Assembly (NCBI GenBank): GCA_002499705.1
Contig: DAMU01000040.1
Coordinates: forward strand, 114 to 64,113
Direction: 5' to 3'
DNA length: 64,000 nucleotides
Source: Euryarchaeota archaeon UBA91
GTDB lineage: Archaea; Thermoplasmatota; Poseidoniia; Poseidoniales; Poseidoniaceae
Part shown: positions 44,969 to 59,540 of the stretch, in pieces
Layout of the letters: each line of letters starts with the position of its first letter
Position numbering within the stretch: position 1 is the first letter of the stretch
Position numbers and translations under genes: made by a program
Notes under the pieces: model-generated
Told to the model about the DNA's origin: nothing
The model's input: only the letters and a program-made list of their open reading frames with translations
The model's database searches: none

Positions 44969-45400
44969 ATGGTGGCTAAGCGTATGTCTCGACGTTGTCG
45001 CCGGTATTCGAAAAAGATTCTACGCGCAAACACCAAGTTTGATCTTCAAACCATTGCAAGTACTATCCAAAGCGAACTCGATAAGCGTAATTTGTCTTAT
45101 GACGAGGCTTTGACACTCGGCAACATCATTCAAAGTCGTGCAGACCAATTGCCCGGAGACGCAATCGTCTATGCTGTATCAGACCGAGACGCATACCGTC
45201 GAACACTCGAACTCTACTTGCGCGACTCTCTACTGACTCAGACTGAGCAACTTCTTCTCTGGGATGAACGTCGTCGTCTCGGCATTTCCGATGTTGAACA
45301 CGAGCGATTACTCGAGCAACTTCTCCTCCAGTGGCGCAAACAAGGCAAGAAAGTTACAATCGCCAATTTTGAAAGACCAGGAAGTGGTACATCTGCGTAA
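44969..45400 (+). CDS. Hypothetical basic helical cytoplasmic protein (143 aa), first gene of the archaellum-linked unit
   Basis: ATG preceded by AGAGGT. Balanced, helix-rich sequence (…LTQTEQLLLWDERRRLGISDVEHERLLEQLLLQWRKQG…) with a basic N-terminus. I recognise no family. Confidence 0.55.
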   Translation: MVAKRMSRRCRRYSKKILRANTKFDLQTIASTIQSELDKRNLSYDEALTLGNIIQSRADQLPGDAIVYAVSDRDAYRRTLELYLRDSLLTQTEQLLLWDERRRLGISDVEHERLLEQLLLQWRKQGKKVTIANFERPGSGTSA

Positions 45401-48400
45401 TCTTCGATTGAATCAAACGACTTTGGCTGCACTCCTTGTTGCATTGTTCCTCGTGCCCTCGTTTTTACCGTTGGTTGGAGCAGACCAATCAGATGATTCA
45501 AGCACGACTGCTCGAAACTCACAACTCGATTTCACGTTCCGAAATCCATTGATGGTGACCAATTATGGTAGTGGTGACAATGGTTCTGCAATCATCGATG
45601 GTGCATTGTATCTTGAACCAGGAAAACACATGATTACTGCTAACATTTCTGCTACAGGAAGCGGAAGTGGAGAGCTCTGGCTTGTATTGCAGCACAAAGG
45701 TTCTCCTATTCTTGGATTCAGCGATGTCCCTGGAAAGACCATATCTCTTGGAACTGTAACCGGCAACGGAGGAGTGCTCGACCTTGCTCCAGTGACTTTC
45801 AGTTGGGATGCGACGACCGGTGCAGGTCAAGAGTTGCGAATTAAAATCCAATCTTCCAACGAGGCTGGTAACCAACTTCTCAACAACATCCAAGCATTGC
45901 CAATTTCATTTTCGGTTGAGAACAAGCATTTTGGCGAGGTCATCTCAAATAATCTGCCAACCGTTTCTGCCGACACCAATCAAATGGTCATGTCCGAGAC
46001 CATCAATCAGATCAATGTAAGTGTGACCAACTCGGGCGTTACCTCACTTCAAGCGAACATGACGGTAACTCTCACTCAAAACGGAACTTCACCTATAGAG
46101 ATAGATTCAAATGCCCTTAATCTTGAACCCGGCAGTTTTACCTTCACGCCAGTCCAAGATTCAGGAGTTCTTACCGCTTCTATTGACGTACCAGCCCTCG
46201 GAATTACAGGCGTTTACAACTTATCAATCACGGTTAAATTTTGGGGAGCAGGGTGGCAATCCGACCCTGCAACTCAACCTTCTTTGAAAATCGAAGGATG
46301 GGTAAAGTTCACTGACTACAATTCCGAAGTAATTGCGCCATCGACCATCGTTGGTGAACCTGGCGACACTGTTAGCATGACTTTCGTGGTTAAAAACACA
46401 GGTATCAAGAATGACCGGTTCAACATCGGTATGGTCGAAACCATCTCTCCAGCATGGACTTCAGGAGTGGCTCCTGACTTCGGAGCAAATGATTTGGCTC
46501 CGGGCGCTGTTCGACTTGTCACTGTTGAGGTGAGCATACCGGCAAGTGCTCAGCGCTCGATGACCGATACCATCACACTCACGTTCACTTCTCAAGCATC
46601 GACTGACAACTTCCAGATTGTAGCAGTCGGTAGAGTGATGGTCGGGGATTTCTTTAGTGGCGAAGCCAAATTCGAGGGTGATGCAAACGACCCCGGTGCT
46701 GACGATGCCCAATCTATTGTTCCTGGAGGTTTTGTTGATTTTAATGTCCGTGTCTCGAATTTAGGGAGTGTCGACTCTGCATTTTTGCTTGGCTCAGGAT
46801 TTGCGGTAAATGCTCTCAATTGGTCATTGGAAGTAGGAACGACAGGTAGTGGCCAACACACAACCCGAGTTATCTCTGCAGGAAGTTCTGAAATTGTCCA
46901 AGTAAAGGTTATTTCACCCCCAATTCAATCACCTATCGTAACCAGCGAGCGTAATACTGCTGGAGATTTAGTCGGCATATGGCTCTCTTGCCAACCGCTG
47001 AGTGGCGGTTCGCTTACATTGGATGACGCCACCGTTAAAGTCACATCAACAATCGTTGTTGACCCCGGCATAAACACAGAACCACAGACCGTATCTGCTG
47101 AAGAAATATCGGCTGCATTGACCGGTTCAATTATCACTCGGAATCCTTCGCTTAATTTGAGAGTGTTCAACAACCTTGCTCTTGCAACATCGTCTGGTGG
47201 AGGTTCCTTAAGCGACGAGAAACTCGACGCCGTCATTTCTTTTACCACCAGTTTTACCAGCGCAAGTGATGGTGGGTTTAGTGAAGCCGACCGTTGGAGT
47301 GTTTCGCTAACAAATCCGATTTACACAGGATTGCTCCCCAATGCCAGCGAAGATACCACACTCAATATTGCAGGACCAACCGGCGGAGAATTCCCTCTCG
47401 CAGGCACATTCACCGTATCAGTAACGGTCACGCCCACCCTCAGCGTAGCGCTTGAAGGAAGCGGCGTAGGTGTTGTTACAGTTACTCGAGATTACACTTT
47501 GATTATTCCTTCGATTATTCAAGGTGAATTCCTTGGGCCAAATTTCCCTCAAGACATCAATGTCGGTACTGAAAACCAAATCCCTCTCCAATTTGCAAAC
47601 ACTGGCAATGATGTTGCATCCTACCGTCTGCGCGTCTTAGACAGCGACCTTCCTGAGAACTGGATTGCGAACTTTAGCGAAGCCGATACAACCATTGAAA
47701 ATTTGACTTCTGATATTTCCGATGGAATAATCGACACGGGCACTTCCAGCCCTAACGTAATTCACACACGCATCGTGACCCTGAATATTCGAACAGATCC
47801 ACTTGCTCCTTCAGGACTTGTCCAGCCAATCCCAATACAAGTTGAAGATCCGTATTCTGGCCAAATCATAGGTGAGCAGTTCACCGTATATGTGGTCGTA
47901 GGTCAAGTCTATGACGCTGCTCTTTCGCCAACCAATCACACGGAACAACTTGAAGTTACACAATCTCAAGAGCACACAATCTTTGTTCGAAATACCGGTA
48001 ATGCCCCTACAGATTATTCCATTATGATAGATACATCTCAAGCAGGAGATGTTGAGTTTGAAATAGTCTCTCCTTTGAATAATAAATTGTTCATCGCTGC
48101 AGGCTATGAAGATTCTATTCGAGTGCGAATGACTGCAAATGCGGATGCCAATTATGACGAATTCTACATGGCAACCGTTTGGGTTTCCGCTAACGATGGT
48201 CAAATTTTGCTTTCATCGAACATTGTTGCAAACATAAGTGAAAATCATTCGTTCGTCATATCAGCAATTGAGGAATTAGCAGTTACACCGGGGACAGAAG
48301 AAGTCATTGATTTCAACTTGACCAATCGAGGAAATTTACAAGAATCCATCACTGTGAATTTCACCGTCGAAGGCGATCTCTCGTTATCCGACTATACCAT

Positions 48401-50501
48401 GACGCAGACAATACCAATCAATCAATCGTTTTCTGACCAACTCACGGTCACGATTCCTGAACTTACTTCATCAGACTCGATGGCTCAAGGAGATAGTTAC
48501 AATCTTACCATTACCGTGCTTAGTTCTGCAGGAAATGAATACAGCAGTCGCGTCATTAAATTGATTGTGCAACCATTGTTTATTGTAGAATCAAACGATT
48601 GGCCATCAGTCATGGAGTTTATGCCTCAATCGGATCGTACATGGGAAGTAACGCTCACAAATACCGGGAATCGTGATGTTATGGTGAGCGCAGCTTACAC
48701 CATCACCCGGCCTGGTCTGAGCAATTTCTCTTCTGATTGGCAAATGGTAAGTCAACCTTCGACTATTTCTCTTCCAAGAAATACACCTGTCGTTCATACA
48801 TTCACTGTGGTCGGAATGACTTCGAATCCTCTGCTATCACTGTCAGCTGATTTGACTATTTTCCTCCAACCGATGGACCTCACCGTTCAAGGAAGTGGTG
48901 AATTCTCGACACAACTGGTCATGTCACGATTCTATTCAACCGGTGAGATTGGACTGGCTCCGAGTGAAAACGACAATGATCCTGTGCCGGTGTACATTCC
49001 TCACACGCACATACCGGTGAGCAACTCCTCGTCCGCAGCCTATGAAGTTGAGTTGTGCAACTCGCAACGCCTGTTAAACCTCAACGCAATGGGCCTAGTA
49101 GAATCAGATTATCCATGGAACTTTACTCTTGTAGAAGAAAAAATAGACGGAACGACTGTCGGCCACCCGCTTGACCTCAACCAAGAATGTGGTGCCTCTT
49201 CTCTTGGCCCAACATCCCGTTATCCGTTATTAGAACAAGTAGCGTGGGATACTTCCAACATCAAACTCGAGGTTGATATCCCTAATCGCGGCTTCATTTT
49301 ACCTGGAGATGGTTGGAATCTAACGTTCCGGTTGTATCATCCCGAGGATAATGCTGGTTACACGCAGTATGATGAAGAAACATTCACCTTGGTCTTGGCG
49401 GTCTTTGCAGATCCAATGATTATGAGCGTTTCTTCGAATGACGGTTACTTCGAAGAAGGCACTGAAACAACCGTCACAGTCCTCATTCAGAATGTTGGTT
49501 CTGCTTCTGCTCTTGATGTAATCGTTGAATTACAATGTGATCTCCTAACGGTATCAAACAAAGCGAACGAACAGCCTCCATTGTATAACCGAAGCGTGAA
49601 TGGTGGAGTGAACACATCTATGATACCGTTCTTCTTCCCTGGTGATTCTGTATCTTTGCAATGGGTTGTTACAGCAAATTCAATCGATTGGTGGTCGCAA
49701 CGAGCCGAGGCAACTTGTATTGCTTCTCTTAATGCATCTTACATGGACAGTAACATCGAGGCGAACGATCAACTAAGCCTTATTGAAGATGTCAAATCTC
49801 AATCACCTGGTGTATCCAACAGTTTCATTGCGTGTATTGTTTTCATGCTCCTTTCGATTATCCTCTTCAGATTAACTGCCCAAAATGAGAACTTCAGATT
49901 ACTCGGTATTTATTCAGGAGTCGTTGGATTTGGATTCTCATTCCACATTTTCCAATATGCCTGGTGGGGTATTGTCGTCCTTGTTCTCAGCGCGCTCTGG
50001 ATATGGAGAGTGAGTTGGGGCAGTACTGAAGAGTTCAGATTATTGCATGAAGACTACCAGCGCGCACGCAAAGGTGTTTCAACGCTGTATTCTGACCACT
50101 TTGAGGAATTGGCAGACACTCGTCGCCAACTCAGCGTCATTCTCGCAGTTCCGGTTCTTGGTATGCTTGCTGTTGTTCTCGGACTTCCACCGTCCCTCTC
50201 AACAGACCAAACCAATTTGGTAAGTCTTATTTCGTATATCGGCGTTGTAATGATTGGGGTTTGGCTCATCATCAAGCGTGCAGATTCAGCTTACGGCTCA
50301 TTGTATGGACGTCTCACCGATATTGAGGTTAAATCTGTTCGAATTGAGAGAGATTTGAGCGATCCAGCACGACTCTTCAATGAACTTGCAGTCGATGGAT
50401 TAAATCTCGATGAAATCTTTGGAGACCTTGAACCTCCTGTGCCTGTGCCTGCTCCTGTCGTCATTGACGGAACAAACGAGGAGGTGAGTGACGATGTCTG
50501 A
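45384..50501 (+). CDS. Giant (~1706 aa) surface protein: 8 or more CARDB/NEW3-like beta-sandwich repeats, five C-terminal TM helices, cytoplasmic tail
   Basis: Signal LRNLRLNQTTLAALLVALFLVPSFLPLVGA. Repeated (V/L)xNxGN-type strands: VKNTGIKNDRFNI, VSNLGSVDSAFLL, FANTGNDVASYRL, VRNTGNAPTDYSI, LTNRGNLQESITV, LTNTGNRDVMVSA, IQNVGSASALDVIV. TM helices lie at about 49824..50275. The in-frame GTG at 45384 is preferred over the ATG at 45264, which would overlap the previous ORF by 137 nt. Confidence 0.8.
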   Translation: MVHLRNLRLNQTTLAALLVALFLVPSFLPLVGADQSDDSSTTARNSQLDFTFRNPLMVTNYGSGDNGSAIIDGALYLEPGKHMITANISATGSGSGELWLVLQHKGSPILGFSDVPGKTISLGTVTGNGGVLDLAPVTFSWDATTGAGQELRIKIQSSNEAGNQLLNNIQALPISFSVENKHFGEVISNNLPTVSADTNQMVMSETINQINVSVTNSGVTSLQANMTVTLTQNGTSPIEIDSNALNLEPGSFTFTPVQDSGVLTASIDVPALGITGVYNLSITVKFWGAGWQSDPATQPSLKIEGWVKFTDYNSEVIAPSTIVGEPGDTVSMTFVVKNTGIKNDRFNIGMVETISPAWTSGVAPDFGANDLAPGAVRLVTVEVSIPASAQRSMTDTITLTFTSQASTDNFQIVAVGRVMVGDFFSGEAKFEGDANDPGADDAQSIVPGGFVDFNVRVSNLGSVDSAFLLGSGFAVNALNWSLEVGTTGSGQHTTRVISAGSSEIVQVKVISPPIQSPIVTSERNTAGDLVGIWLSCQPLSGGSLTLDDATVKVTSTIVVDPGINTEPQTVSAEEISAALTGSIITRNPSLNLRVFNNLALATSSGGGSLSDEKLDAVISFTTSFTSASDGGFSEADRWSVSLTNPIYTGLLPNASEDTTLNIAGPTGGEFPLAGTFTVSVTVTPTLSVALEGSGVGVVTVTRDYTLIIPSIIQGEFLGPNFPQDINVGTENQIPLQFANTGNDVASYRLRVLDSDLPENWIANFSEADTTIENLTSDISDGIIDTGTSSPNVIHTRIVTLNIRTDPLAPSGLVQPIPIQVEDPYSGQIIGEQFTVYVVVGQVYDAALSPTNHTEQLEVTQSQEHTIFVRNTGNAPTDYSIMIDTSQAGDVEFEIVSPLNNKLFIAAGYEDSIRVRMTANADANYDEFYMATVWVSANDGQILLSSNIVANISENHSFVISAIEELAVTPGTEEVIDFNLTNRGNLQESITVNFTVEGDLSLSDYTMTQTIPINQSFSDQLTVTIPELTSSDSMAQGDSYNLTITVLSSAGNEYSSRVIKLIVQPLFIVESNDWPSVMEFMPQSDRTWEVTLTNTGNRDVMVSAAYTITRPGLSNFSSDWQMVSQPSTISLPRNTPVVHTFTVVGMTSNPLLSLSADLTIFLQPMDLTVQGSGEFSTQLVMSRFYSTGEIGLAPSENDNDPVPVYIPHTHIPVSNSSSAAYEVELCNSQRLLNLNAMGLVESDYPWNFTLVEEKIDGTTVGHPLDLNQECGASSLGPTSRYPLLEQVAWDTSNIKLEVDIPNRGFILPGDGWNLTFRLYHPEDNAGYTQYDEETFTLVLAVFADPMIMSVSSNDGYFEEGTETTVTVLIQNVGSASALDVIVELQCDLLTVSNKANEQPPLYNRSVNGGVNTSMIPFFFPGDSVSLQWVVTANSIDWWSQRAEATCIASLNASYMDSNIEANDQLSLIEDVKSQSPGVSNSFIACIVFMLLSIILFRLTAQNENFRLLGIYSGVVGFGFSFHIFQYAWWGIVVLVLSALWIWRVSWGSTEEFRLLHEDYQRARKGVSTLYSDHFEELADTRRQLSVILAVPVLGMLAVVLGLPPSLSTDQTNLVSLISYIGVVMIGVWLIIKRADSAYGSLYGRLTDIEVKSVRIERDLSDPARLFNELAVDGLNLDEIFGDLEPPVPVPAPVVIDGTNEEVSDDV

Positions 50502-51504
50502 TTCGGATAGCGTAGACCTCCCAGGTGAAGAACATACACTTGAGGAACAACCTCCATTTGACGGGGTTCAATCCGGTGACGCTCCATCCCCAAATCAACT
50601 AAGCAACGAATCTATGTCCGAGCAAGCAATCGCAATATCTCGAGACTTAGAGACAATGGTCCTTGGAGTGGCTCAGAACGATGCGAATTCACTTGCGGGA
50701 ACTGAACTCGAAATTGGTGACGCAAGGAGATTTTTGCGCTCACACAAACTTCGACGAGCACTCGCAAGCGTAAAGAATGCAGAAGCATCTCTTGTTGAAC
50801 TTGAAGAAGATGTCTTGTATCTTCGCCGTAACATTGCTATGTTGCACCGCCTTCTTAATGAGAAAAGAGTGAGTGAAGCAGATATAGAAACGATTCTTCT
50901 TCGCCTTCGAAGTGCAACTGGGGCAGCTGAAATAGGCGATGTTGGCGGTGCTGCAGGTGAAGTTGAATTCCTCGTGGACGATCTCATCGGTGGAAACACA
51001 TCAACTCTCAACCCCTTCCTCTTCCGTCATTTCTGGATGGGTCTGGAAACCCGATGGCCAGCAGGTGGTGATGAAGGCGTTCTCGTGGTTCGTATCATCA
51101 ATGATGGACCCGTTGCCATGCCCCCTATGCGACTTGCTCCCCCAGTCCCTGAAGGATGGACTGCAAAACCATCTTCGGTTGACCTTCCAACGATCGCTCC
51201 TGGTGGAAACCTCCCTGTGCGTTTCAATGTCGCGACAAATCGCCGTCAGGCTGCGGATGAAATTCCACTTTCTCGTAAGCTCGCAATTTCCACAGGTTAT
51301 GAAATCAGAACAGGTGAAGTCTTTGTGACCATCCGTGCACAAAATCGTTCGATGGAACCTCTAACAGATATTCTCCTCACGCCTTGGTTCCCGCCAGGTT
51401 ACATTTCGGACAAGGTGCCCTTTGTGTCACGTCTTGCTCCAGACGAAGTGGCAATGATTCGGATTCCACTTCGAATTAACATGAGTTCAGGAGGTAATTC
51501 TTGA
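50494..51504 (+). CDS. Hypothetical cytoplasmic protein (337 aa): acidic N-terminus, helical/coiled-coil region, two NEW3/CARDB-like beta-sandwich modules
   Basis: GAGGAGGTGA lies 6 nt upstream of the ATG. ATGTCTGA overlaps the stop of the giant gene. No signal peptide or TM. Helical LRRALASVKNAEASLVELEEDVLYLRRNIAMLHRLLNEK. Beta modules VLVVRIINDGPVAMPPMRLAPPVPEGWTAKPSSVDLPTIAPGGNLPVRFNV and VFVTIRAQNRSMEPLTDILLTPWFPPGY...EVAMIRIPLRI. Confidence 0.75.
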   Translation: MSDSDSVDLPGEEHTLEEQPPFDGVQSGDAPSPNQLSNESMSEQAIAISRDLETMVLGVAQNDANSLAGTELEIGDARRFLRSHKLRRALASVKNAEASLVELEEDVLYLRRNIAMLHRLLNEKRVSEADIETILLRLRSATGAAEIGDVGGAAGEVEFLVDDLIGGNTSTLNPFLFRHFWMGLETRWPAGGDEGVLVVRIINDGPVAMPPMRLAPPVPEGWTAKPSSVDLPTIAPGGNLPVRFNVATNRRQAADEIPLSRKLAISTGYEIRTGEVFVTIRAQNRSMEPLTDILLTPWFPPGYISDKVPFVSRLAPDEVAMIRIPLRINMSSGGNS

Positions 51505-51553
51505 ACTCAATCTATTCCACCCTGTATTGGGGGATTCTAAAAACGGTGAAATT

Positions 51554-52102
51554 ATGAAAGAAAATACGGACGAAAAACACGACAATCTCGCAGCCATAGG
51601 TATCGGCGCAATGATTGTTTTTATTGCGCTAATTCTGGTTGCGTCAGTTGCAGCAGCTGTAATTATATCAACTGCTGAAAAATTACAACAAAACGCCCAG
51701 AATACAGGTGCGGAGACGACAAACATGCTCTCCTCAAAGGTAGTTGTTCTGAGTGTTATGGTAATACAGAACAGTGATTTGTATATTACTTTTGAATTAG
51801 CACCAGGTTCTTCAAATATTGCTCCAGGAGACATTGATTTCGCGATTGTATGCTCGAATGGTGCAGTGTATGGGGATTTCTCTCTAACTTCACTCGTTGG
51901 TACTAATGCGGGTTTACCGCTTAATACACTGTTACAATCCCATACGACCTATGACATTACTTTAGCATCAGCACTTATTGCAGACTGTCCACCGACTGCC
52001 AACGATGACCATTCACTTGTCATTCAGTCAGAATACGGCGGATACACGTTTGAAGCATTGAATTATGGATCCGACGTTACTCCAGGGGCGGTGGTTGTAT
52101 GA
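51554..52102 (+). CDS. arlB: Archaellin (class III signal peptide)
   Basis: MKENTDEKHDNLAAIGIGAMIVFIALILVASVAAAVIISTAEKLQQNAQNTG is the archaellin N-terminal helix. The track start at 51527 is TTG; the ATG at 51554 follows GGTGA. Confidence 0.9.
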   Translation: MKENTDEKHDNLAAIGIGAMIVFIALILVASVAAAVIISTAEKLQQNAQNTGAETTNMLSSKVVVLSVMVIQNSDLYITFELAPGSSNIAPGDIDFAIVCSNGAVYGDFSLTSLVGTNAGLPLNTLLQSHTTYDITLASALIADCPPTANDDHSLVIQSEYGGYTFEALNYGSDVTPGAVVV

Positions 52103-52707
52103 AGACTGACTCTAAGCAAATTAAGGACGACAAGATTGCAGCAATCGGTATTGGAGCAATGATTGTTTTCATCGCTCTTATTCTGGTCGCAGCAGTTGCC
52201 GCAGCCGTTATTATTCAAACCGCAGAGAAACTTCAACAAAGCGCAGAAACAACTGGCGATGACACCGCCAAAAATCTCGCAGGGAAGTTTGTAATCCACG
52301 ACGGTTTTGTCGCAACAGGGGCAAACGGTGGTTTACCAACCTACACTGATGCGAACGCTTACTTCTTTACAGCGACACTCGCACCAGGAAGTACACCGAT
52401 TCGAATCAATACAATCACCTACCAAATGTTTTGTGATAGTGGTTTAATCGAAGGGGTATTTGGTACGGATGCAGATGTTCAAGAAATGCATAACGGAGAC
52501 AATGGAGTCCTTGCGGCTACAGTTGAACTCCAACCTAAACAGCAGTACGTTTTGTGGGTTCTAGCGTCTGATAACGGTATCGATTGTTCAGCAGGAAATG
52601 CTGCAGGTGATACGACCATTGAACTTGCAATCCACGTCGGCACTGGAGGTTCGACCTTCCTCACATTAAATGTTGATTCAACCACTGCTGGAGCACCGGT
52701 GGTCTGA
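52099..52707 (+). CDS. arlB: Archaellin (class III signal peptide), second copy
   Basis: MKTDSKQIKDDKIAAIGIGAMIVFIALILVAAVAAAVIIQTAEKLQQSAETTG. ATGA overlap with the first archaellin. Confidence 0.9.
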   Translation: MKTDSKQIKDDKIAAIGIGAMIVFIALILVAAVAAAVIIQTAEKLQQSAETTGDDTAKNLAGKFVIHDGFVATGANGGLPTYTDANAYFFTATLAPGSTPIRINTITYQMFCDSGLIEGVFGTDADVQEMHNGDNGVLAATVELQPKQQYVLWVLASDNGIDCSAGNAAGDTTIELAIHVGTGGSTFLTLNVDSTTAGAPVV

Positions 52708-52741
52708 TGTTGACTTTTAGAAAAGAATTGGAGGAATAATT

Positions 52742-53578
52742 ATGGCATGGCCTTTTAGTAAAAATACCAATCAAAATCAAGATGCTGATGCAGCTCTCAC
52801 AGAAGAGCGCCTCAAGATTATGTCGAACATTGCTATTGAGCAAGTTCCACTACCGGAACAAGGTGAACTGGGTGAAGAAGATGCATGGACGATCAGTCCT
52901 GGGCTTACGAAAGCTCGGCTCAACAGTATCGGAAGCGTACCAACTGTTGCTGCGAATCTTGCACCAGCCTCAGCACCGGCACCTGTGAGTACTACCGTAG
53001 ACACATCGGGACTTGAACGTCTCATCAGCACCCGCCTTGACATGGTAGAAGATGTCCTGCGCATGGTTGAAGTTCGTCTGGATGAGGGACCGTCCGGTTC
53101 CAATTCAGGAGAGTCTCAATCCGAAGGTGACGGAGATACTGCTGCCTTGGATGGTGACACGATTGTTACTGCCTCTGGCGAGACAATTAGTGTCTCAGGC
53201 ACTGATCGAATGATGGGTACTGATGAAGCACCATTGGTCGAATTGTATGAAGCACAGGCATTGGCAGCGAATCCATTTTTGCATGCCCCTTCATTTGGCG
53301 CACATACAGAAACAAACCATGTTGGTGCTCCAACCATTTCAGCGCTCTTGCTTGCAAACATGTCCGGAATGGCTGCGGTGAGTTTTGCTCAGAAAGCCAT
53401 GGCTTCTGGAATGCTTACCGATGATGAAGGCCGAAAAGTCCTCGCAATCGTGCAACTTGCAGAACCTGGTGAATCAGAAGCCGCTCTTGACGACCACTTG
53501 ACACACAAGGAGTTGCTCACGTTTTCATCGCTTGTGAGTTCATGGCGAAGCGTGAAATCACTTCGAGGTGAAGTCTGA
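52742..53578 (+). CDS. Hypothetical acidic soluble protein (278 aa) in the position normally held by arlC/D/E
   Basis: GGAGGA lies 6 nt upstream. No TM. Ala/Pro-rich linker, acidic Ser/Gly-rich middle, helical C-terminal region. I see no match to the FlaC or FlaD/E domains. Confidence 0.7.
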   Translation: MAWPFSKNTNQNQDADAALTEERLKIMSNIAIEQVPLPEQGELGEEDAWTISPGLTKARLNSIGSVPTVAANLAPASAPAPVSTTVDTSGLERLISTRLDMVEDVLRMVEVRLDEGPSGSNSGESQSEGDGDTAALDGDTIVTASGETISVSGTDRMMGTDEAPLVELYEAQALAANPFLHAPSFGAHTETNHVGAPTISALLLANMSGMAAVSFAQKAMASGMLTDDEGRKVLAIVQLAEPGESEAALDDHLTHKELLTFSSLVSSWRSVKSLRGEV

Positions 53579-53579
53579 T

Positions 53580-54233
53580 ATGGGCGCCTCGGTTGGTGTG
53601 GGGGGTCTCATTGTAGGGATCTCAATGTTGTTGGTCTTTTCAATGGCCATTACAACATTAAGCAGTCAAACAACGACTTCTTTAGAAGTTATTGAATCTG
53701 CTCAGACACCAGCCCCAATCATCACAATCGAAAGTGCGCAATACCTCAATTCAATACACAGTATTAGCATCCTTAACGGCGGTAATGGCTATGTTGACGG
53801 TCAACTCATCTCATCAGATTGTCCTGGTTTTTCAGCAGATTTCACCGTGATTGCCGGTGTCATATCTTCCGTTGATACAATTGTCAACCGAGGTGTTTGT
53901 AATGCTGACCCTGCCACAATCGAAGTCGAAAACCAACCCGGTGGAAGTAACGCAGATTTTGACTCAGAGATAAAACGCTATTTTCACGGCGAAGTCACGA
54001 ATGATGGGTCTGAGACACTTTCTACCGGCGAGGTTTGGTTTTTCTTTGACGGCTTGTCACCAACAACCATGACTTCATCCGATTTTTCTCCATCCGTAGT
54101 GAAGAATAATTGGTTTTCTGGAGAGACAATTTCCGTTATTGGTGCGAGTGAAGGCCCTACGCCTTTACTTTCTCGAATGAGTATTACTGTTGGTGAAACG
54201 AGTGTTTCGAAAACGATAGTCGTTCCAGCATGA
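53580..54233 (+). CDS. arlF: ArlF-like archaellum protein
   Basis: MGASVGVGGLIVGISMLLVFSMAITTL resembles the FlaF-type MGFS... N-terminal hydrophobic helix followed by a beta-rich domain. Position is upstream of arlG-H-I-J. GAGGTGA lies 8 nt upstream. The F versus G assignment rests on order and N-terminus only. Confidence 0.65.
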   Translation: MGASVGVGGLIVGISMLLVFSMAITTLSSQTTTSLEVIESAQTPAPIITIESAQYLNSIHSISILNGGNGYVDGQLISSDCPGFSADFTVIAGVISSVDTIVNRGVCNADPATIEVENQPGGSNADFDSEIKRYFHGEVTNDGSETLSTGEVWFFFDGLSPTTMTSSDFSPSVVKNNWFSGETISVIGASEGPTPLLSRMSITVGETSVSKTIVVPA

Positions 54234-54242
54234 GGTGAGAAG

Positions 54243-54761
54243 ATGGCAGACGGTGGAGCATCAACAATCATCATGCTGGTTACCGCATTGCTCATTTCAA
54301 GTGCAGCGAGTGCTGTCCTAATCCAAGAATGGTCCTCTACCTCACGAGTCATGCAACAGCAACAGATGGGGTTACAAATCTCTGAAGAGATCGGAATTGA
54401 TTTTGCTGGTGACCCGATGATGGTCGATCTCCAACTGGGCGCAACTCCGGCAGCACTCAACGAAATAACGTTCTATGTTCAGAACACTGGCATTCACAAG
54501 ATGAATGAAAACTCACTTTCTATCATCGTCGATGGAGTTACCCTTGACGGAACTTCAATTGTAAGTCGGTCGTTTGTACCAAACACTGCCGGTGATTGGG
54601 ACTCACATGTTTTACTTGAAATAAAAATGCGCGATATCGCCTTTGACGCATATGTCGATGGCGAAGAAATTTCAATCTTTGCGATCGCACGTTCGCTCAA
54701 TATTAACGGAATTTCGATGAGTGCCGAGATGAGTGAGGAGGTGCAATTGCATGTCTCCTGA
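54243..54761 (+). CDS. arlG: ArlG-like archaellum protein
   Basis: MADGGASTIIMLVTALLISSAASAVLIQEW is an archaellin-like N-terminal helix. 172 aa, located between arlF and arlH. GAGGTGA lies upstream. Confidence 0.65.
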   Translation: MADGGASTIIMLVTALLISSAASAVLIQEWSSTSRVMQQQQMGLQISEEIGIDFAGDPMMVDLQLGATPAALNEITFYVQNTGIHKMNENSLSIIVDGVTLDGTSIVSRSFVPNTAGDWDSHVLLEIKMRDIAFDAYVDGEEISIFAIARSLNINGISMSAEMSEEVQLHVS

Positions 54762-55494
54762 GCACGGTAATGAAGATCCGTTGATGACGGCACACAAGCC
54801 AATAGAAGATGGATTCCCTTATGATCTTGAAACGGATTCATTAGCAGATTCGATGGGTCTTCGTCTTCCGAATCGTTCTCTCTATGTTCTCCAGGGGACT
54901 GTTGGTGGTGGTAAATCTCTCATTTCCCAACGCCTTGTCTATGGATTAGTTGAAAACGGTGTCAAGGTCTTGGTTATCACAACTGAACTGACGACTCGCG
55001 GTTGGATTGAACAAATGGAATCCATTGGATACGGCGTTACCGATGCAGTTCGTGAAGGAAAACTTCTCATCTTCAGCCGTTTTGGAACTATTGCTGAATC
55101 TAAACCTGAGGTTAAGTTGGAACAACTCTTAGATTCTGAAGCAATCGAATTAGCCGATGTTGTTGTCATCGATTCAGCGAGTTCGATTATGCCTTCTGAT
55201 CTTGACGATATCAGTCGTTTTAATTTGATGCAGCGTCTTCGTCAAATCTCATCGAAAGGGCGTTCACTGATGTTGTGCGTCGACCCTGAAGAGATGGATG
55301 AGAAGTTGATGCATAACATGCGCAGTTCTGCTGAAATTGTATTGGATCTTACAACGAACATGATTGGAGGAGAAATCAAACGAAACATCGTTGTTACTCG
55401 TTTCTTACGCGCAGCCGGTCCTGTCCAAACATCGATTGGATGGCGTGTTGAACCAAGTATGGGCTTCATCGTTGATATTACTGCGGTGAGTTGA
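54751..55494 (+). CDS. arlH: ArlH (FlaH), RecA/KaiC-like ATP-binding archaellum protein
   Basis: Walker A LQGTVGGGKSLISQRL, KVLVITTELTT, VVVIDSAS (Walker B-like). GAGGAGGTG lies 7 nt upstream of the ATG at 54751. Confidence 0.85.
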   Translation: MSPEHGNEDPLMTAHKPIEDGFPYDLETDSLADSMGLRLPNRSLYVLQGTVGGGKSLISQRLVYGLVENGVKVLVITTELTTRGWIEQMESIGYGVTDAVREGKLLIFSRFGTIAESKPEVKLEQLLDSEAIELADVVVIDSASSIMPSDLDDISRFNLMQRLRQISSKGRSLMLCVDPEEMDEKLMHNMRSSAEIVLDLTTNMIGGEIKRNIVVTRFLRAAGPVQTSIGWRVEPSMGFIVDITAVS

Positions 55495-55508
55495 GGAGGG
55501 ATATTACG

Positions 55509-57227
55509 ATGGTTGAAGAAGAACTCCGATTTGCTCGAGGTGACCTGAATGCGGTCATGAACGCACACCCTCACGTTGGCGATTGGGTTCGGGATTTTGA
55601 GGCGAAATACGGTTCCCGTCCTATCTATTATGGGCCCTTGGATCGAGATGCTAAAAAGCAACGACCACTCAATTTAATTTATCTTGCAAAGGAACCTATC
55701 TTTGTCCATATTTACGAACCTCCTGCGGACGAAGAAGGTGGTGGTCAAGTCCTATGGTTCGGTTTAGAGCCTCAATTGACTGAAGAAGAAGAGAATATTC
55801 GTAGACAATTGGTTGAAACACTGCTCCAAGAGGCTCCAAGCGCTCCGACTTTTACAACCGATTCAGAGTTTGAGTCAATCCTCGCTCGAATGATTGATCA
55901 ATACACTGTCCTTGAATCTGAACTTACTACCAATGTACGTCGTCAAGGACGCATGTGGGAAATGATGGGCTTAGATGACAAGCGCATGCTTGTTACTCCT
56001 GAGCAGCGCGAACGATTACAATACATCATCATTCGCGATTTGATACGAAACGGCCCTCTTGAACCCCTACTCTCCGATGAAATGTTGGAAGATATTCACT
56101 CCATTGGTTTGAAGCACGTTCACATGGATCACAAAGTGTTTGGAATGGTCTCCTCAAACATCCGTTTCCGAGACCGCGACGTTCTCGCTCGTTTCTTACG
56201 TGCCATGTCTGAACGTATCGGCCGACCAGTTTCAGACAATAAGCCGATTATCGATGGTGCTTTGCTTGACGGCTCACGTATCAATATTATTTTCTCCGAT
56301 GACGTATCAATGCTCGGCCCTTCGTTCACCATCCGTAAGTTCGCTGAGGAAACAATTTCGATTACTCAACTTATCGCATGGGGGACGATTTCATCTCAAG
56401 TTGCCGCCTATATCTGGATCTGTCTTGAATACGGCATGTCCGTGCTCGTGTCTGGTGAAACCGCATCCGGAAAGACGACGACATTGAATGCAATTTTACC
56501 GTTCATTGATCACAATGTTAAGATCTATTCAGCAGAAGACACACCTGAAGTTAAGGTTCGTCACAAGATTTGGCAACGTCTGGTTACTCGAACATCAAAG
56601 AGTGAAGATTCGAGCGTTGAAATGTTCGATTTGTTGAAGGCAGCTTTACGTAGCCGTCCCAGATACATCATCATCGGTGAAATTCGTGGTGTTGAAGGAG
56701 CAACTGCATTCCAAGCAATGCAGACTGGTCACCCAGTTATCGCTACATTCCACGCATCATCCATCGTTAAAATGATTCAGAGATTTACCGGTGACCCAAT
56801 CAATGTTCCAATTCGTTTCTTCGACAACCTGAACTTCGCTATTTTCCAAGAAGTGGTTGAAGCGCCTGGTGGCGGAATTGCTCGACGTGTTACGGGTATT
56901 GACGAGGTCATTGGATACAATAAACACAGCGACGGTGTGCTTACCCGTGGTATGTTCGAATGGGATCCTGTGAAGGACAAGCACTATTTCCGAGGTATGT
57001 TTCAAAGTCATTTACTTGAAAACAAAATTGCAGCAATGGCAGGATTTGCTAATAAGCGTGACATTTACGATGAAATGCTCAAGCGCGCAGATGCTCTTCA
57101 ACGCATGGTAGACCGAGACCTTACCCACTATGACGACGTTTTCGATTTACTTGGAATTTATTACAACAGTGGATGGGATCATTTCGATAAAGCCGTTGAT
57201 AGTTGGAAAGGCATAAACCATGATTGA
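55509..57227 (+). CDS. arlI: ArlI (FlaI), archaellum assembly/motor ATPase (type II/IV secretion ATPase superfamily)
   Basis: VLVSGETASGKTTTLNAILPFI (Walker A), YIIIGEIRGVEGATAFQAMQTGHPVIATFHA. GAGGAGGG lies 8 nt upstream of the ATG at 55509. Confidence 0.95.
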   Translation: MVEEELRFARGDLNAVMNAHPHVGDWVRDFEAKYGSRPIYYGPLDRDAKKQRPLNLIYLAKEPIFVHIYEPPADEEGGGQVLWFGLEPQLTEEEENIRRQLVETLLQEAPSAPTFTTDSEFESILARMIDQYTVLESELTTNVRRQGRMWEMMGLDDKRMLVTPEQRERLQYIIIRDLIRNGPLEPLLSDEMLEDIHSIGLKHVHMDHKVFGMVSSNIRFRDRDVLARFLRAMSERIGRPVSDNKPIIDGALLDGSRINIIFSDDVSMLGPSFTIRKFAEETISITQLIAWGTISSQVAAYIWICLEYGMSVLVSGETASGKTTTLNAILPFIDHNVKIYSAEDTPEVKVRHKIWQRLVTRTSKSEDSSVEMFDLLKAALRSRPRYIIIGEIRGVEGATAFQAMQTGHPVIATFHASSIVKMIQRFTGDPINVPIRFFDNLNFAIFQEVVEAPGGGIARRVTGIDEVIGYNKHSDGVLTRGMFEWDPVKDKHYFRGMFQSHLLENKIAAMAGFANKRDIYDEMLKRADALQRMVDRDLTHYDDVFDLLGIYYNSGWDHFDKAVDSWKGINHD

Positions 57228-57237
57228 GGGATAATGT

Positions 57238-59040
57238 ATGCAGCGAATGTCTTCCTGGCAAATCGCTCTGCGTCGCATAGAAATGCCCATTTCACAATTC
57301 ATTTTGTTCTTCGTTGGTGGTGCTGCACTTACAGGATTTATCTTCTCTTTCATTTTGATATCCGTCACCGGTGGTACTGGTGATCAAGGTCTTTTTACTG
57401 GTAGTTCGAGTATTCTTTTGGCCCTCTTACTCCCACTCATCACAGGTGGGGCAGCCTTCGTATTCCCGTTACTTGAGGTCCGTCGTTCGGCGACCATGAT
57501 CGAAAAAGAGATGCACATGTTCATCACTCGAATGGGAATTCTATCATTGGGTGAAGTCGCAGCCCAATCGATTTTCGATATCCTAAAGCAGATGAGTGAT
57601 TATGGTGAACTCGCTATTGAAGTGAAGCGGATTGAAACTCTTGTCGACAAATGGCATACCTCTTTGCCTGAAGCATCTCGAATCGTTGCTCAGCAAAGTC
57701 CCAGCCCCCTGTGGGCTGATTTCCTTGATCGAATGGCTTTTTCAATTGAGGCAGGTCAACCGATTGACGAATTTATGCGCTCAGAACAAGAAACGGTTTC
57801 CGAACAATACGCTACGCTCTACGACACTCGCCTTGAATCGGTCGATACGATGAAAGAAATCTATGTTTCTTTGGTTTCTGCCGGATTATTTGGTTTAGTT
57901 ATTGCAGGAATTCACCTTGTCCTTTTCGAAGTTGGTTCAGCAAGCGATACTCCAATCATGGTTGCGAGTCGCCTGCGCTTCTTACTGCTTGCAGGTTTGT
58001 TGTTTACCGTCGTTCAGGTTGGTGCTGTTTTTGCATTCCGTGCCTCTATTCCTGAAGACCCAACTTTTGCTCGTGACACCTTAGATACTCCGTTTCGTAT
58101 TAATTTCGTTCGCTCGCTTGTACTGTCCTTCGTTCTTACAGGCATACTTCTGGTTGTAACCATCATCACTATTCTTTCAGCTTGGCAGGCGGTCACGTCT
58201 CAGTGGGACCGTTATGGATTGCTGCTCATCGCTGCTCCGTTATCTCCAATGCTTATTCCTGCGCTGATGGTTGGACGAGAAGAGCGACAAATTCTTCGCA
58301 GAGACGAAACCTATCCTGATTTTATTCGAGCACTTGGTGGAACCGCTCAAGCACGTTCGGCAGAACCTTCTGCTACAATCAAAGCACTCCGTGGCATTGA
58401 TTTTGGAATGCTTGACAACTCTATCGACCGTTTGGAACGTCGACTTTCAACCCGAATCGATTCGGATAGAGCATGGGATTACTTCAATGCAGATACGAAC
58501 TCTGCTGTTATCTCTCGTTATACTCGAATTTACATTGAAGGCTCTCAATCTTCGGGTCAGCCGGCACGAACTGCCGAAATGGTTTCTCGAACGGTAGGCA
58601 GTCTTCTTTCTCTGCGCCGCCGCAGATCTCTCTCAGCCAACACCATGCGTGGCGTAGCGCTTGGTTTACTCATTGCTTGTGTAACCAGCCTGAATGTTAC
58701 GATTTCTATTGTCGTACGTCTCGGTGATTCAATTGCAGGAATCGCAACGACATTCACTGAGAACAGCAATGTCGACCTCGCCCAGTTCGGTGCTCAAATT
58801 GCACTACCAATCATGGACGATGCTTCAGGAGTTAGTGAAAACATTCGCTTGTTCAAAATCATTGTTTCCATTCTTATCCTTTTCCAAGTCTGGGCGGTTT
58901 CAGTCATTTCGAATCGACTCCGAGGTGGTGGTATGACCACCGCACTGGGGCAATCGATTCAACTGCTTTGGATTGCCGGGATAACTTCGTATGTCACATC
59001 GCTGATTCTCGAATCTGCTGCAGCACTATTCAATGTGTGA
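57238..59040 (+). CDS. arlJ: ArlJ (FlaJ), polytopic archaellum membrane platform protein
   Basis: 600 aa. Two blocks of TM helices separated by cytoplasmic helical domains (T2SS-F-like duplication). Immediately downstream of arlI. Confidence 0.85.
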   Translation: MQRMSSWQIALRRIEMPISQFILFFVGGAALTGFIFSFILISVTGGTGDQGLFTGSSSILLALLLPLITGGAAFVFPLLEVRRSATMIEKEMHMFITRMGILSLGEVAAQSIFDILKQMSDYGELAIEVKRIETLVDKWHTSLPEASRIVAQQSPSPLWADFLDRMAFSIEAGQPIDEFMRSEQETVSEQYATLYDTRLESVDTMKEIYVSLVSAGLFGLVIAGIHLVLFEVGSASDTPIMVASRLRFLLLAGLLFTVVQVGAVFAFRASIPEDPTFARDTLDTPFRINFVRSLVLSFVLTGILLVVTIITILSAWQAVTSQWDRYGLLLIAAPLSPMLIPALMVGREERQILRRDETYPDFIRALGGTAQARSAEPSATIKALRGIDFGMLDNSIDRLERRLSTRIDSDRAWDYFNADTNSAVISRYTRIYIEGSQSSGQPARTAEMVSRTVGSLLSLRRRRSLSANTMRGVALGLLIACVTSLNVTISIVVRLGDSIAGIATTFTENSNVDLAQFGAQIALPIMDDASGVSENIRLFKIIVSILILFQVWAVSVISNRLRGGGMTTALGQSIQLLWIAGITSYVTSLILESAAALFNV

Positions 59041-59081
59041 AATATCCCAACAATCATAACCCGATTGTAAGATGAATTATC

Positions 59082-59540
59082 ATGCAAGTCCCTCCACCAC
59101 CCGCCCCAGTCTCGCCAACTCAACCCGTAATCCCAGCTGCGCCATCACCATACCAGCCAGCAGCAGGTTTCCAACAGTCTGTTCTCAGTTACTCGTTTCA
59201 CCGTTGTCTCATGATTGGTGTAATCCTTATTCTTGCATCGGTCGTCTTTGTTGAAGTTATTGAGATGGATGGAGCACCATCTTTGGTTGACTATGACATG
59301 GAAGTTGAAGGTCAAATGGAACAGATGCTGGAAGATACTGAATCACATACCGACTTGAATCGCGTTATAGGTTCCTTTAGTGCAATTCTCCAAGCCATCG
59401 GACTTGGGATGATTGGCTATGCACTGCTAAGAGAATCTCATGACGGAACCAATGAGCACACAGCACTGCGAGTCACTACCGTTATCGTTGGTGCTTTGGT
59501 TCTCGTAAACATTGCTTCTCGAAGTATTACCATCTTCTGA
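59082..59540 (+). CDS. Hypothetical membrane protein (152 aa) with a Pro-rich N-terminus, last gene of the archaellum unit
   Basis: MQVPPPPAPVSPTQPVIPAAPSPYQP, then three hydrophobic helices (LMIGVILILASVVFV, FSAILQAIGLGMIGYALL, TTVIVGALVLVNIA). Starts 41 nt after arlJ. Confidence 0.6.
   Translation: MQVPPPPAPVSPTQPVIPAAPSPYQPAAGFQQSVLSYSFHRCLMIGVILILASVVFVEVIEMDGAPSLVDYDMEVEGQMEQMLEDTESHTDLNRVIGSFSAILQAIGLGMIGYALLRESHDGTNEHTALRVTTVIVGALVLVNIASRSITIF

Follow-up and report, generated by a model that had tools for sequence, protein, structure and literature searches.

ArlX carries an N-terminal transmembrane (TM) helix and a cytoplasmic domain that forms a ring of ~30 nm and binds both ArlH and ArlI; ArlCDE, in turn, is not anchored in the membrane, and it is not known what the 'polar cap' is made of (PMC8978795). 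Here, we examine a gene that lies between the gene for a very large membrane protein (the giant protein) and the archaellin genes in the archaellum (arl) operon of Euryarchaeota archaeon UBA91, a member of the order Poseidoniales (Marine Group II, MGII). The window is the whole stretch of 64,000 nucleotides analysed, from contig DAMU01000040.1 of GenBank assembly GCA_002499705.1. On balance, the 336 aa product of the gene (P0001, the partner protein) and the giant protein probably form a two-protein accessory module that spans the membrane in Thermoplasmatota archaella, with P0001 as its cytoplasmic subunit. This module is undescribed in its entirety, and the arl operon reported here is one to which a probable accessory pair of this membrane-spanning kind has been added. 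No paper giving the module a role was found in the literature, and the account of the motility region in MGII by Tully in 2019 (PMC6336850) notes several unannotated orthologous proteins there and gives them no roles.

The partner protein resembles ArlX in being encoded in an arl operon, in its helical, putatively cytoplasmic portion and in its proposed place in a scaffold by which the ArlH/ArlI/ArlJ core is tied to the membrane. With the giant protein, it would make up a membrane-anchored cytoplasmic element. However, ArlX combines its N-terminal TM helix and cytoplasmic domain in one chain, whereas the partner protein and its relatives in other Thermoplasmatota are free of TM segments. The ArlX gene is found between arlB and arlG in operons of the Thermoproteota type (arlG-arlF), whereas the gene studied here lies upstream of arlB and belongs to an operon with the euryarchaeal order arlF-arlG, and its product includes two Ig-like modules. 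The NCBIfam and Pfam scans of P0001, which did not include a direct comparison with an ArlX sequence or profile, returned no archaellum family.

ArlC, ArlD and ArlE are likewise encoded in euryarchaeal arl operons and are soluble, acidic and helical in part, and an NPF(L) motif is common to the partner protein and the FlaC_arch domain. The partner protein differs from them in having neither a FlaC_arch nor an Arch_fla_DE domain, nor similarity to these profiles, and in the operon slot of its gene. At its C-terminus, it has a β-sandwich; the sequence of the Arch_fla_DE region, in contrast, suggests helices.

Two further comparisons concern the Ig-like modules. The arl loci of Methanococcales (arCOG05057) and Thermococcales encode Ig-fold S-layer-like proteins, for which a local adaptation of the envelope to the filament has been proposed (PMC13705601). 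These multi-Ig proteins are, like the giant protein, large, Ig-like and encoded inside arl loci, a likeness of description only, and neither a coupled cytoplasmic partner nor a five-TM C-terminal module is described for them in the text consulted. The NEW3/NPCBM_assoc and CARDB domains match the two C-terminal modules of the partner protein in sequence and in fold (PDB entry 9fyn), but such domains are typically extracytoplasmic, and no export signal is found in the members of the partner family examined. In the alignment complex of the bacterial type IVa pilus, the actin-like protein PilM clamps a short cytoplasmic segment of PilN, a membrane protein whose extracytoplasmic part is large, and so links motor and envelope. 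This is the closest mechanistic analogy to the pair proposed here, but it is purely functional, as the partner protein, a helical bundle with Ig-like modules, has an unrelated fold and no sequence relationship to PilM.

Coupling and conservation of the gene pair

The open reading frame (ORF) of P0001 has no internal stops and is under strong constraint. There are 621 clusters of homologues at 90 % identity, abundant in marine metagenomes and none of them named, some of which carry the label Poseidoniaceae, and the β-region is >80 % identical across the Poseidoniaceae. The ATG of the gene (position 50494) precedes the TGA of the giant gene (50499–50501), such that 8 nt (ATGTCTGA) are common to both genes, and a Shine–Dalgarno-like sequence, GAGGAGGTGA, is found in the 3′ end of the giant gene. 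A preliminary description of this DNA had placed the start in the stop region of the giant gene behind a perfect sequence of this kind, as is indeed the case, and the combination indicates that the translational coupling is real. Overlap or abutment of the giant stop and the partner start was found in every locus examined. In one genome labelled MGIIb (G141:C130:2284-3144), a match to the partner family lies in an open frame of 1063 aa that one TGA splits; in this genome, giant and partner are apparently encoded in frame, with only a stop codon between them.

Within the Poseidoniales, 151 genomes were searched for the partner protein and ArlJ. Both were found in 91 and neither in 55, with four genomes containing ArlJ only and one the partner only, though these counts are not phylogenetically independent. 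The sole genome with the partner only is a metagenome-assembled genome (MAG) in 260 contigs. The two proteins occur in the identical 14 of 22 genera, and in the second family of the order, where the trait is patchy, they track each other. The co-occurrence with arl genes expected in the preliminary description is therefore found when ArlJ is used as the marker.

Linkage in relatives also holds by position. The order orf143-giant-partner-arlB-p278-arlF-arlG-arlH-arlI-arlJ is retained in six divergent Poseidoniales loci and also in four Poseidoniaceae contigs. Across the six loci, the identities are 29–38 % for the partner protein, 22–26 % for the giant protein, 28–43 % for p278 (the product of the gene between arlB and arlF) and 66–75 % for ArlI.

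A phmmer search with the single partner sequence against 1.84 billion representatives returned 49 clusters, apparently close homologues or fragments only. The more distant relatives were invisible to this search and were found by profile searches over genomes. The partner-family profile was run over 201 Thermoplasmatota genomes, and weak matches (E 1e-6 to 1e-2) were recovered outside the Poseidoniales. In ~15 genomes, these matches are ~2 kb upstream of an Arch_fla_DE match, on the same contig and strand. Of eight such regions retrieved, seven, which belong to three other families, have the arrangement giant, partner, arlB, a gene for an ArlC-D/E fusion, arlF-arlG-arlH-arlI-arlJ. The sister giant proteins are 1489–1675 aa, with an N-terminal TM segment, an ectodomain of the CARDB/NEW3/FixG_C type and a C-terminal cluster of TM segments. 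The sister partner proteins are 330–469 aa, acidic and TM-free, and their start overlaps or directly follows the stop of the giant gene, with GGAGG (where the upstream sequence was read) followed by an ATGA or GTGA overlap at most of the junctions. In the fusion protein, FlaC_arch is at aa 125–178 and Arch_fla_DE at aa 234–315.

The sister partner family (alignment A5) is homologous to the Poseidoniales partner family (alignment A2). The hhalign comparison gave a probability of 97.2 % and an E value of 3.6e-11 over 246 columns, corresponding to aa 70–326 of P0001, so that the homology starts in the helical region and extends across both β-modules. We define the module by a gene that is directly 3′ of, and overlaps or abuts, a giant gene of 1400–1750 codons (for a protein with an N-terminal TM segment, an Ig-rich ectodomain and a cluster of TM segments at the C-terminus) and is directly 5′ of arlB, and this is the arrangement found in the window, in the Poseidoniales loci and in the sister loci.

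The profile of the sister family recovers full-length members adjoining ArlD/E in at least six families, and the arl-adjacent full-length members in three families beyond those of the seven loci were placed by coordinates. Paralogues consisting of the β-region only are found elsewhere in four more families (f8, f23, f25 and f31). These are 365–452 aa in length and are encoded away from the ArlD/E gene (L046:7295-8413, and in genomes G168, G179, G189, G205, G220, G230, G235, G198, G210, G225 and G215). All sister-family members that have a name are annotated as a 'hypothetical protein' and come from Thermoplasmatota MAGs. One further member, P0325, is labelled 'Nitrospinaceae bacterium', but it is partial and on a contig of 1005 bp, and is thus most likely a binning error rather than a bacterial homologue.

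Architecture of the partner and giant proteins

No 19-residue window of the partner protein has TM-like hydropathy, and neither a TM nor a signal-like segment was seen in any family member examined, from the Poseidoniales or the sister lineages. Export was considered and rejected on these grounds, and a cytoplasmic location is inferred from the same absence. The first 50 residues contain 11 acidic residues and one basic residue. These observations bear out two claims of the preliminary description, namely the lack of a signal peptide or TM segment and the acidic N-terminus of ~50 aa. The acidic extension varies from 0 to ~200 residues among homologues (alignments A1 and A2). In the sister family, an acidic low-complexity tract is instead C-terminal, with a conserved motif, DFTPV..YDL...P.K.PE, behind it at the terminus (alignment A5), the acidic disordered tract of the Poseidoniales protein being N-terminal.

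An AlphaFold2 model built from an order-wide alignment of 25 sequences has a mean predicted local distance difference test score (pLDDT) of 81.7 and a predicted TM-score (pTM) of 0.65. Residues 1–37 are disordered in the model, followed by five helices at 38–165 and β-strands at 180–328, and the pLDDT is ~90 across aa 180–330. The helical region anticipated from the sequence is therefore present in the model, but the heptad-like spacing noted there does not correspond to one long coiled coil, as the helices are modelled as a five-helix bundle. Among the 25 family members, only weak matches of the EzrA/TPR-like kind were found for this domain. The helical module at the N-terminus of the sister-family proteins (model positions 4–107) recurs, often in tandem, in many Thermoplasmatota ORFs of 400–7000 aa, for example with five matches in an ORF of 3155 aa at G168:C3. 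From its recurrence in such very large ORFs, it seems to be a widespread repeat type of the Thermoplasmatota.

The two C-terminal modules were correctly recognized from the outset as NEW3/CARDB-like. NPCBM_assoc (PF10633) matches aa 192–254 of P0001 with 22.4 bits, just below the gathering cut-off of 24.4. It is matched in 22 of the 25 family members (best E 1.1e-5) and is already assigned to several representatives of the homologue clusters. The two modules are related by tandem duplication (hhalign 93 %, E 3.6e-7, 65 columns). In Foldseek searches, the model matched the NEW3 domain of 9fyn, a GH20 enzyme, with a probability of 1.00, as well as other Ig-like sandwiches. The matches include Ig-like platforms that are cytoplasmic (the adaptin appendage, the BBSome and domains of the ASH/HYDIN type), and a β-sandwich inside the cell is hence not anomalous.

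Over the whole chain, the Foldseek matches in the PDB were generic tandem Ig-like sandwiches with low TM-scores, none of them from archaella. The preliminary description had suggested a fold search against ArlX, ArlD and ArlCDE, but no solved structure of ArlC/D/E or ArlX was found for such a comparison. Pfam and NCBIfam scans and a search of PDB sequences with the family profile gave only the sub-threshold NEW3 match and coiled-coil noise. Across Pfam, NCBIfam, the PDB and Foldseek, there was thus no confident match to an unrelated characterized family.

The giant protein is matched by NPCBM_assoc and CARDB in Pfam and by the choice-of-anchor T family in NCBIfam. From hydropathy and the positive-inside rule, its N-terminus is predicted to be inside, with the first TM segment at aa 9–33. 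An ectodomain of ~1440 aa follows, rich in Ig-like modules and with 24 N-X-S/T sequons, and then a C-terminal module with five TM segments at 1478–1633. The predicted cytoplasmic side consists of a charged loop of ~35 aa (1546–1580) and an acidic, Pro-rich tail of 70 aa (1636–1705), ~105 residues in all. The loop is the best-conserved segment (30 % identity compared to 20 % for the ectodomain). Orthologues of the giant protein are found across the order, with weaker ones in the sister operons.

The ArlC-D/E slot and the remaining genes of the operon

The preliminary description proposed that the partner protein is a replacement for a missing cytoplasmic ring component. At the level of Pfam families, the component is missing as claimed. 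Neither Arch_fla_DE (PF04659) nor FlaC_arch (PF05377) was found above threshold in 31 Poseidoniales genomes, whereas the control genomes were positive, and Arch_fla_DE was found in 87 of the 201 Thermoplasmatota genomes but in none from the Poseidoniales. A partner protein that oligomerises into a ring or scaffold around ArlH/ArlI/ArlJ, in place of ArlX or ArlCDE, would fit with this absence, with a soluble, partly helical, acidic product of an arl operon gene and with its strict co-occurrence with arlJ. There is also a weak similarity between aa 88–176 of the partner protein and the coiled coil and NPF end of the sister ArlC-D/E proteins (hhalign 25.8 %, E 7e-4). However, in the seven sister operons the homologues share the operon with a canonical ArlC-D/E fusion, and there is no mutual exclusivity. 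The presence of the homologues beside a bona fide fusion indicates that the family has its own role next to ArlCDE. In the window, the slot that the fusion holds in the sister operons is filled by p278. In addition, the partner protein lacks a TM anchor and is modelled as a bundle rather than a long coiled coil, and the sister partner proteins gave only 0.2 % in hhalign comparisons with the ArlC-D/E proteins of their own genomes. With hhalign, the partner protein scored 0.08 % against one ArlD/E alignment (A3), and against the other (A6) a signal was present in the coiled-coil region alone. No FlaC_arch match was found up to E 10 in P0001, the 25 family members and seven further members, and Arch_fla_DE was not matched in P0001 or the 25 members. 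Replacement of ArlX or ArlCDE by the partner protein is therefore improbable.

The same similarity could reflect descent. The partner protein might be a highly diverged ArlC paralogue, in which the FlaC_arch coiled coil became the helical domain and β-modules were gained where the ArlD/E domain had been. The FlaC_arch domain of the sister ArlC-D/E proteins ends ...LYDxISAxxNPF, and ...LVDDLIGGNTSTLNPFL in the partner protein and LVELYEAQALAANPFL in p278 are at the equivalent helix end. This signal consists of a short motif and a coiled-coil-like composition only. The sister orthologues carry LPFPLL in place of NPF(L) and, as noted above, show no similarity to ArlC-D/E, and FlaC_arch is matched in none of the 32 family members. 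As both the motif and the similarity are absent in the sister orthologues, this idea was rejected as the principal explanation and we consider it very improbable. The NPF(L) that closes a helical stretch in the partner protein (LNPFLF), p278 (NPFL, 53258–53269) and FlaC_arch may be a shared docking motif, or a coincidence.

For the ArlC-D/E function, p278 is clearly a better positional candidate than the partner protein. It has a helix at aa 89–115, the motif LVELYEAQALAANPFL, which in alignments matches the C-terminal end of the FlaC_arch domain of the sister fusions, and a C-terminal helical domain of ~95 residues (196–275, pLDDT 71–87). This layout is collinear with a coiled coil, an NPF end and a 96-position Arch_fla_DE domain. 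The overall AlphaFold2 model is of low confidence (mean pLDDT 57), and a Foldseek search with it found nothing. FlaC_arch is the sole recurrent Pfam match in the p278 family (two of nine members, E 0.24), and hhalign found no significant similarity between p278 and the two ArlD/E alignments. A focused comparison of C-terminal profiles was collinear, with an E value of 0.004 compared to 0.24 for a reversed control, and was not significant. No one of these signals reaches significance by itself. From the sequences, it is roughly an even call whether p278 is a diverged ArlC-D/E.

The genes of the operon are listed in Table 1. The ORF list gives a unit of 12 genes on the forward strand, spanning positions 44969–59540 of the window. 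The matches of ArlJ, ArlH, ArlG and the archaellins to Pfam and NCBIfam families are clear. The first gene, orf143, overlaps the start of the giant gene by 17 nt. Orthologues with 46–56 % identity are in the equivalent position in four of the six divergent Poseidoniales loci, while BLAST searches were blank in L018, L022 and the sister Thermoplasmatota loci, and no family match was found. It may encode a regulator or chaperone. The last gene, orf152, is directly after arlJ and is kept in four loci (L001–L004). Its product has a Pro-rich N-terminus, ~3 TM segments and a weak match to the archaeal Pilin_N family (E 0.039).

Table 1. Genes and sequence features of the arl operon in the window
Feature	Position	Strand	Description	Basis
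orf143	44969–45400	+	Basic, 143 aa, no TM segments; first gene of unit	ORF list, composition
Giant membrane protein	45384–50501	+	1705 aa from GTG at 45384; longest ORF starts at 45264	
Shine–Dalgarno-like GAGGAGGTGA	50478–50487	+	Within 3′ end of giant gene, 6 nt before partner ATG	
Partner gene (P0001)	50494–51504	+	336 aa, putative cytoplasmic partner protein	
Partner N-terminal extension (aa 1–37)	50494–50604	+	Acidic, disordered	pLDDT <50
Partner helical domain (aa 38–165)	50605–50988	+	Five helices (modelled)	AlphaFold2 secondary structure
Partner LNPFLF junction motif (aa 172–177)	51007–51024	+	Conserved	P174 and F175 invariant in alignment
Partner β-module 1 (aa 178–256)	51025–51261	+	NEW3/NPCBM_assoc-like	Pfam, Foldseek
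Partner β-module 2 (aa 257–332)	51262–51489	+	Diverged duplicate of module 1	hhalign
arlB1	51554–52102	+	Archaellin	Pfam Arch_flagellin (E 1e-19 and 4e-20 for the arlB1/arlB2 pair)
arlB2	52099–52707	+	Archaellin	Pfam Arch_flagellin (see arlB1)
p278	52742–53578	+	278 aa, acidic, TM-free; between arlB and arlF (ArlC-D/E slot)	
arlF-like	53568–54233	+		Pfam/NCBIfam
arlG	54243–54761	+		Pfam/NCBIfam
arlH	54733–55494	+		Pfam/NCBIfam
arlI	55491–57227	+		Pfam/NCBIfam (678 bits, cut-off 550)
arlJ	57238–59040	+		Pfam/NCBIfam
orf152	59082–59540	+	Small multi-TM protein; last gene of unit	Hydropathy

A proposed role for the pair

The conservation of the coupling over phylum-level divergence suggests that the giant and partner proteins form a complex, and it is from this suggested complex that docking on the cytoplasmic face of the giant protein and a link between envelope and motor are proposed. 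The two proteins would be made together through translational coupling. The helical domain of the partner protein, its tandem Ig-like modules or both may then dock on the cytoplasmic loop and tail of the giant protein, and modules left free, or the acidic disordered arm, might contact ArlH/ArlI/ArlJ together with ArlC-D/E (p278 in the Poseidoniales). The outcome would be a cytoplasmic part of the motor tied to a large structure embedded in the envelope, with the pair as an addition that works beside an ArlC-D/E-type ring and does not replace it.

Several observations weigh against an accessory role of this kind in the archaellum. Three families with ArlD/E (f16, f30 and f35) have no match with the profile of either the partner or the sister family. 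The module is thus dispensable for the archaellum as such, and it could serve a surface function that is co-regulated with it. The excess conservation of the cytoplasmic loop of the giant protein is only modest, and the giant proteins of the sister lineages have a much shorter tail. All of the genomes compared are MAGs of uncultured organisms.

A surface function is the substance of the strongest competing explanation that we weighed on these points, namely that the giant protein is an adhesin or S-layer-like protein co-regulated with the archaellum and the partner protein is its private chaperone, anchor or regulator, with no contact to the motor. The Ig-like modules of the giant ectodomain are of the CARDB, NEW3, FixG_C and Ig_VWA7 types and are fast-evolving (~20 % identity within the order), consistent with such a function, and an adhesion role for MGII archaella has been proposed by Rinke et al. 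(PMC6461757). The multi-Ig S-layer-like proteins that Methanococcales and Thermococcales are described to encode in their arl loci (PMC13705601), the absence of the module from some Thermoplasmatota with ArlD/E and the β-only paralogues encoded away from arl genes in other families also point in this direction. However, among the 151 genomes the pair is all but confined to those with arl genes, and its exact position directly upstream of arlB, with tight spacing, has been kept over phylum-level divergence. A linkage of this kind is stronger than co-regulation alone usually preserves, and we regard a purely surface-related pair as unlikely.

A more specific form of the accessory module that we prefer can be suggested, though only tentatively and as a doubtful possibility. 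The pair might act as a brace across the envelope, with the ectodomain as a collar or anchor, the five TM segments as the link and the partner protein clamping the anchor-less ArlC-D/E-type ring (p278 in MGII). If true, this would be a phylum-wide euryarchaeal counterpart of the membrane anchorage provided by ArlX in Thermoproteota, which is attributed elsewhere to the uncharacterized 'polar cap'.

MGII reportedly outnumber all other planktonic archaea in the surface ocean (PMC6461757), and we note that the missing recognizable ArlCDE in this group does not make the partner protein the substitute. The conserved, coupled pair, which heads the arl operon in many Thermoplasmatota, is a testable candidate for the connection that attaches the euryarchaeal cytoplasmic ring to the membrane; alternatively, the pair may be an envelope adaptation of the machine.

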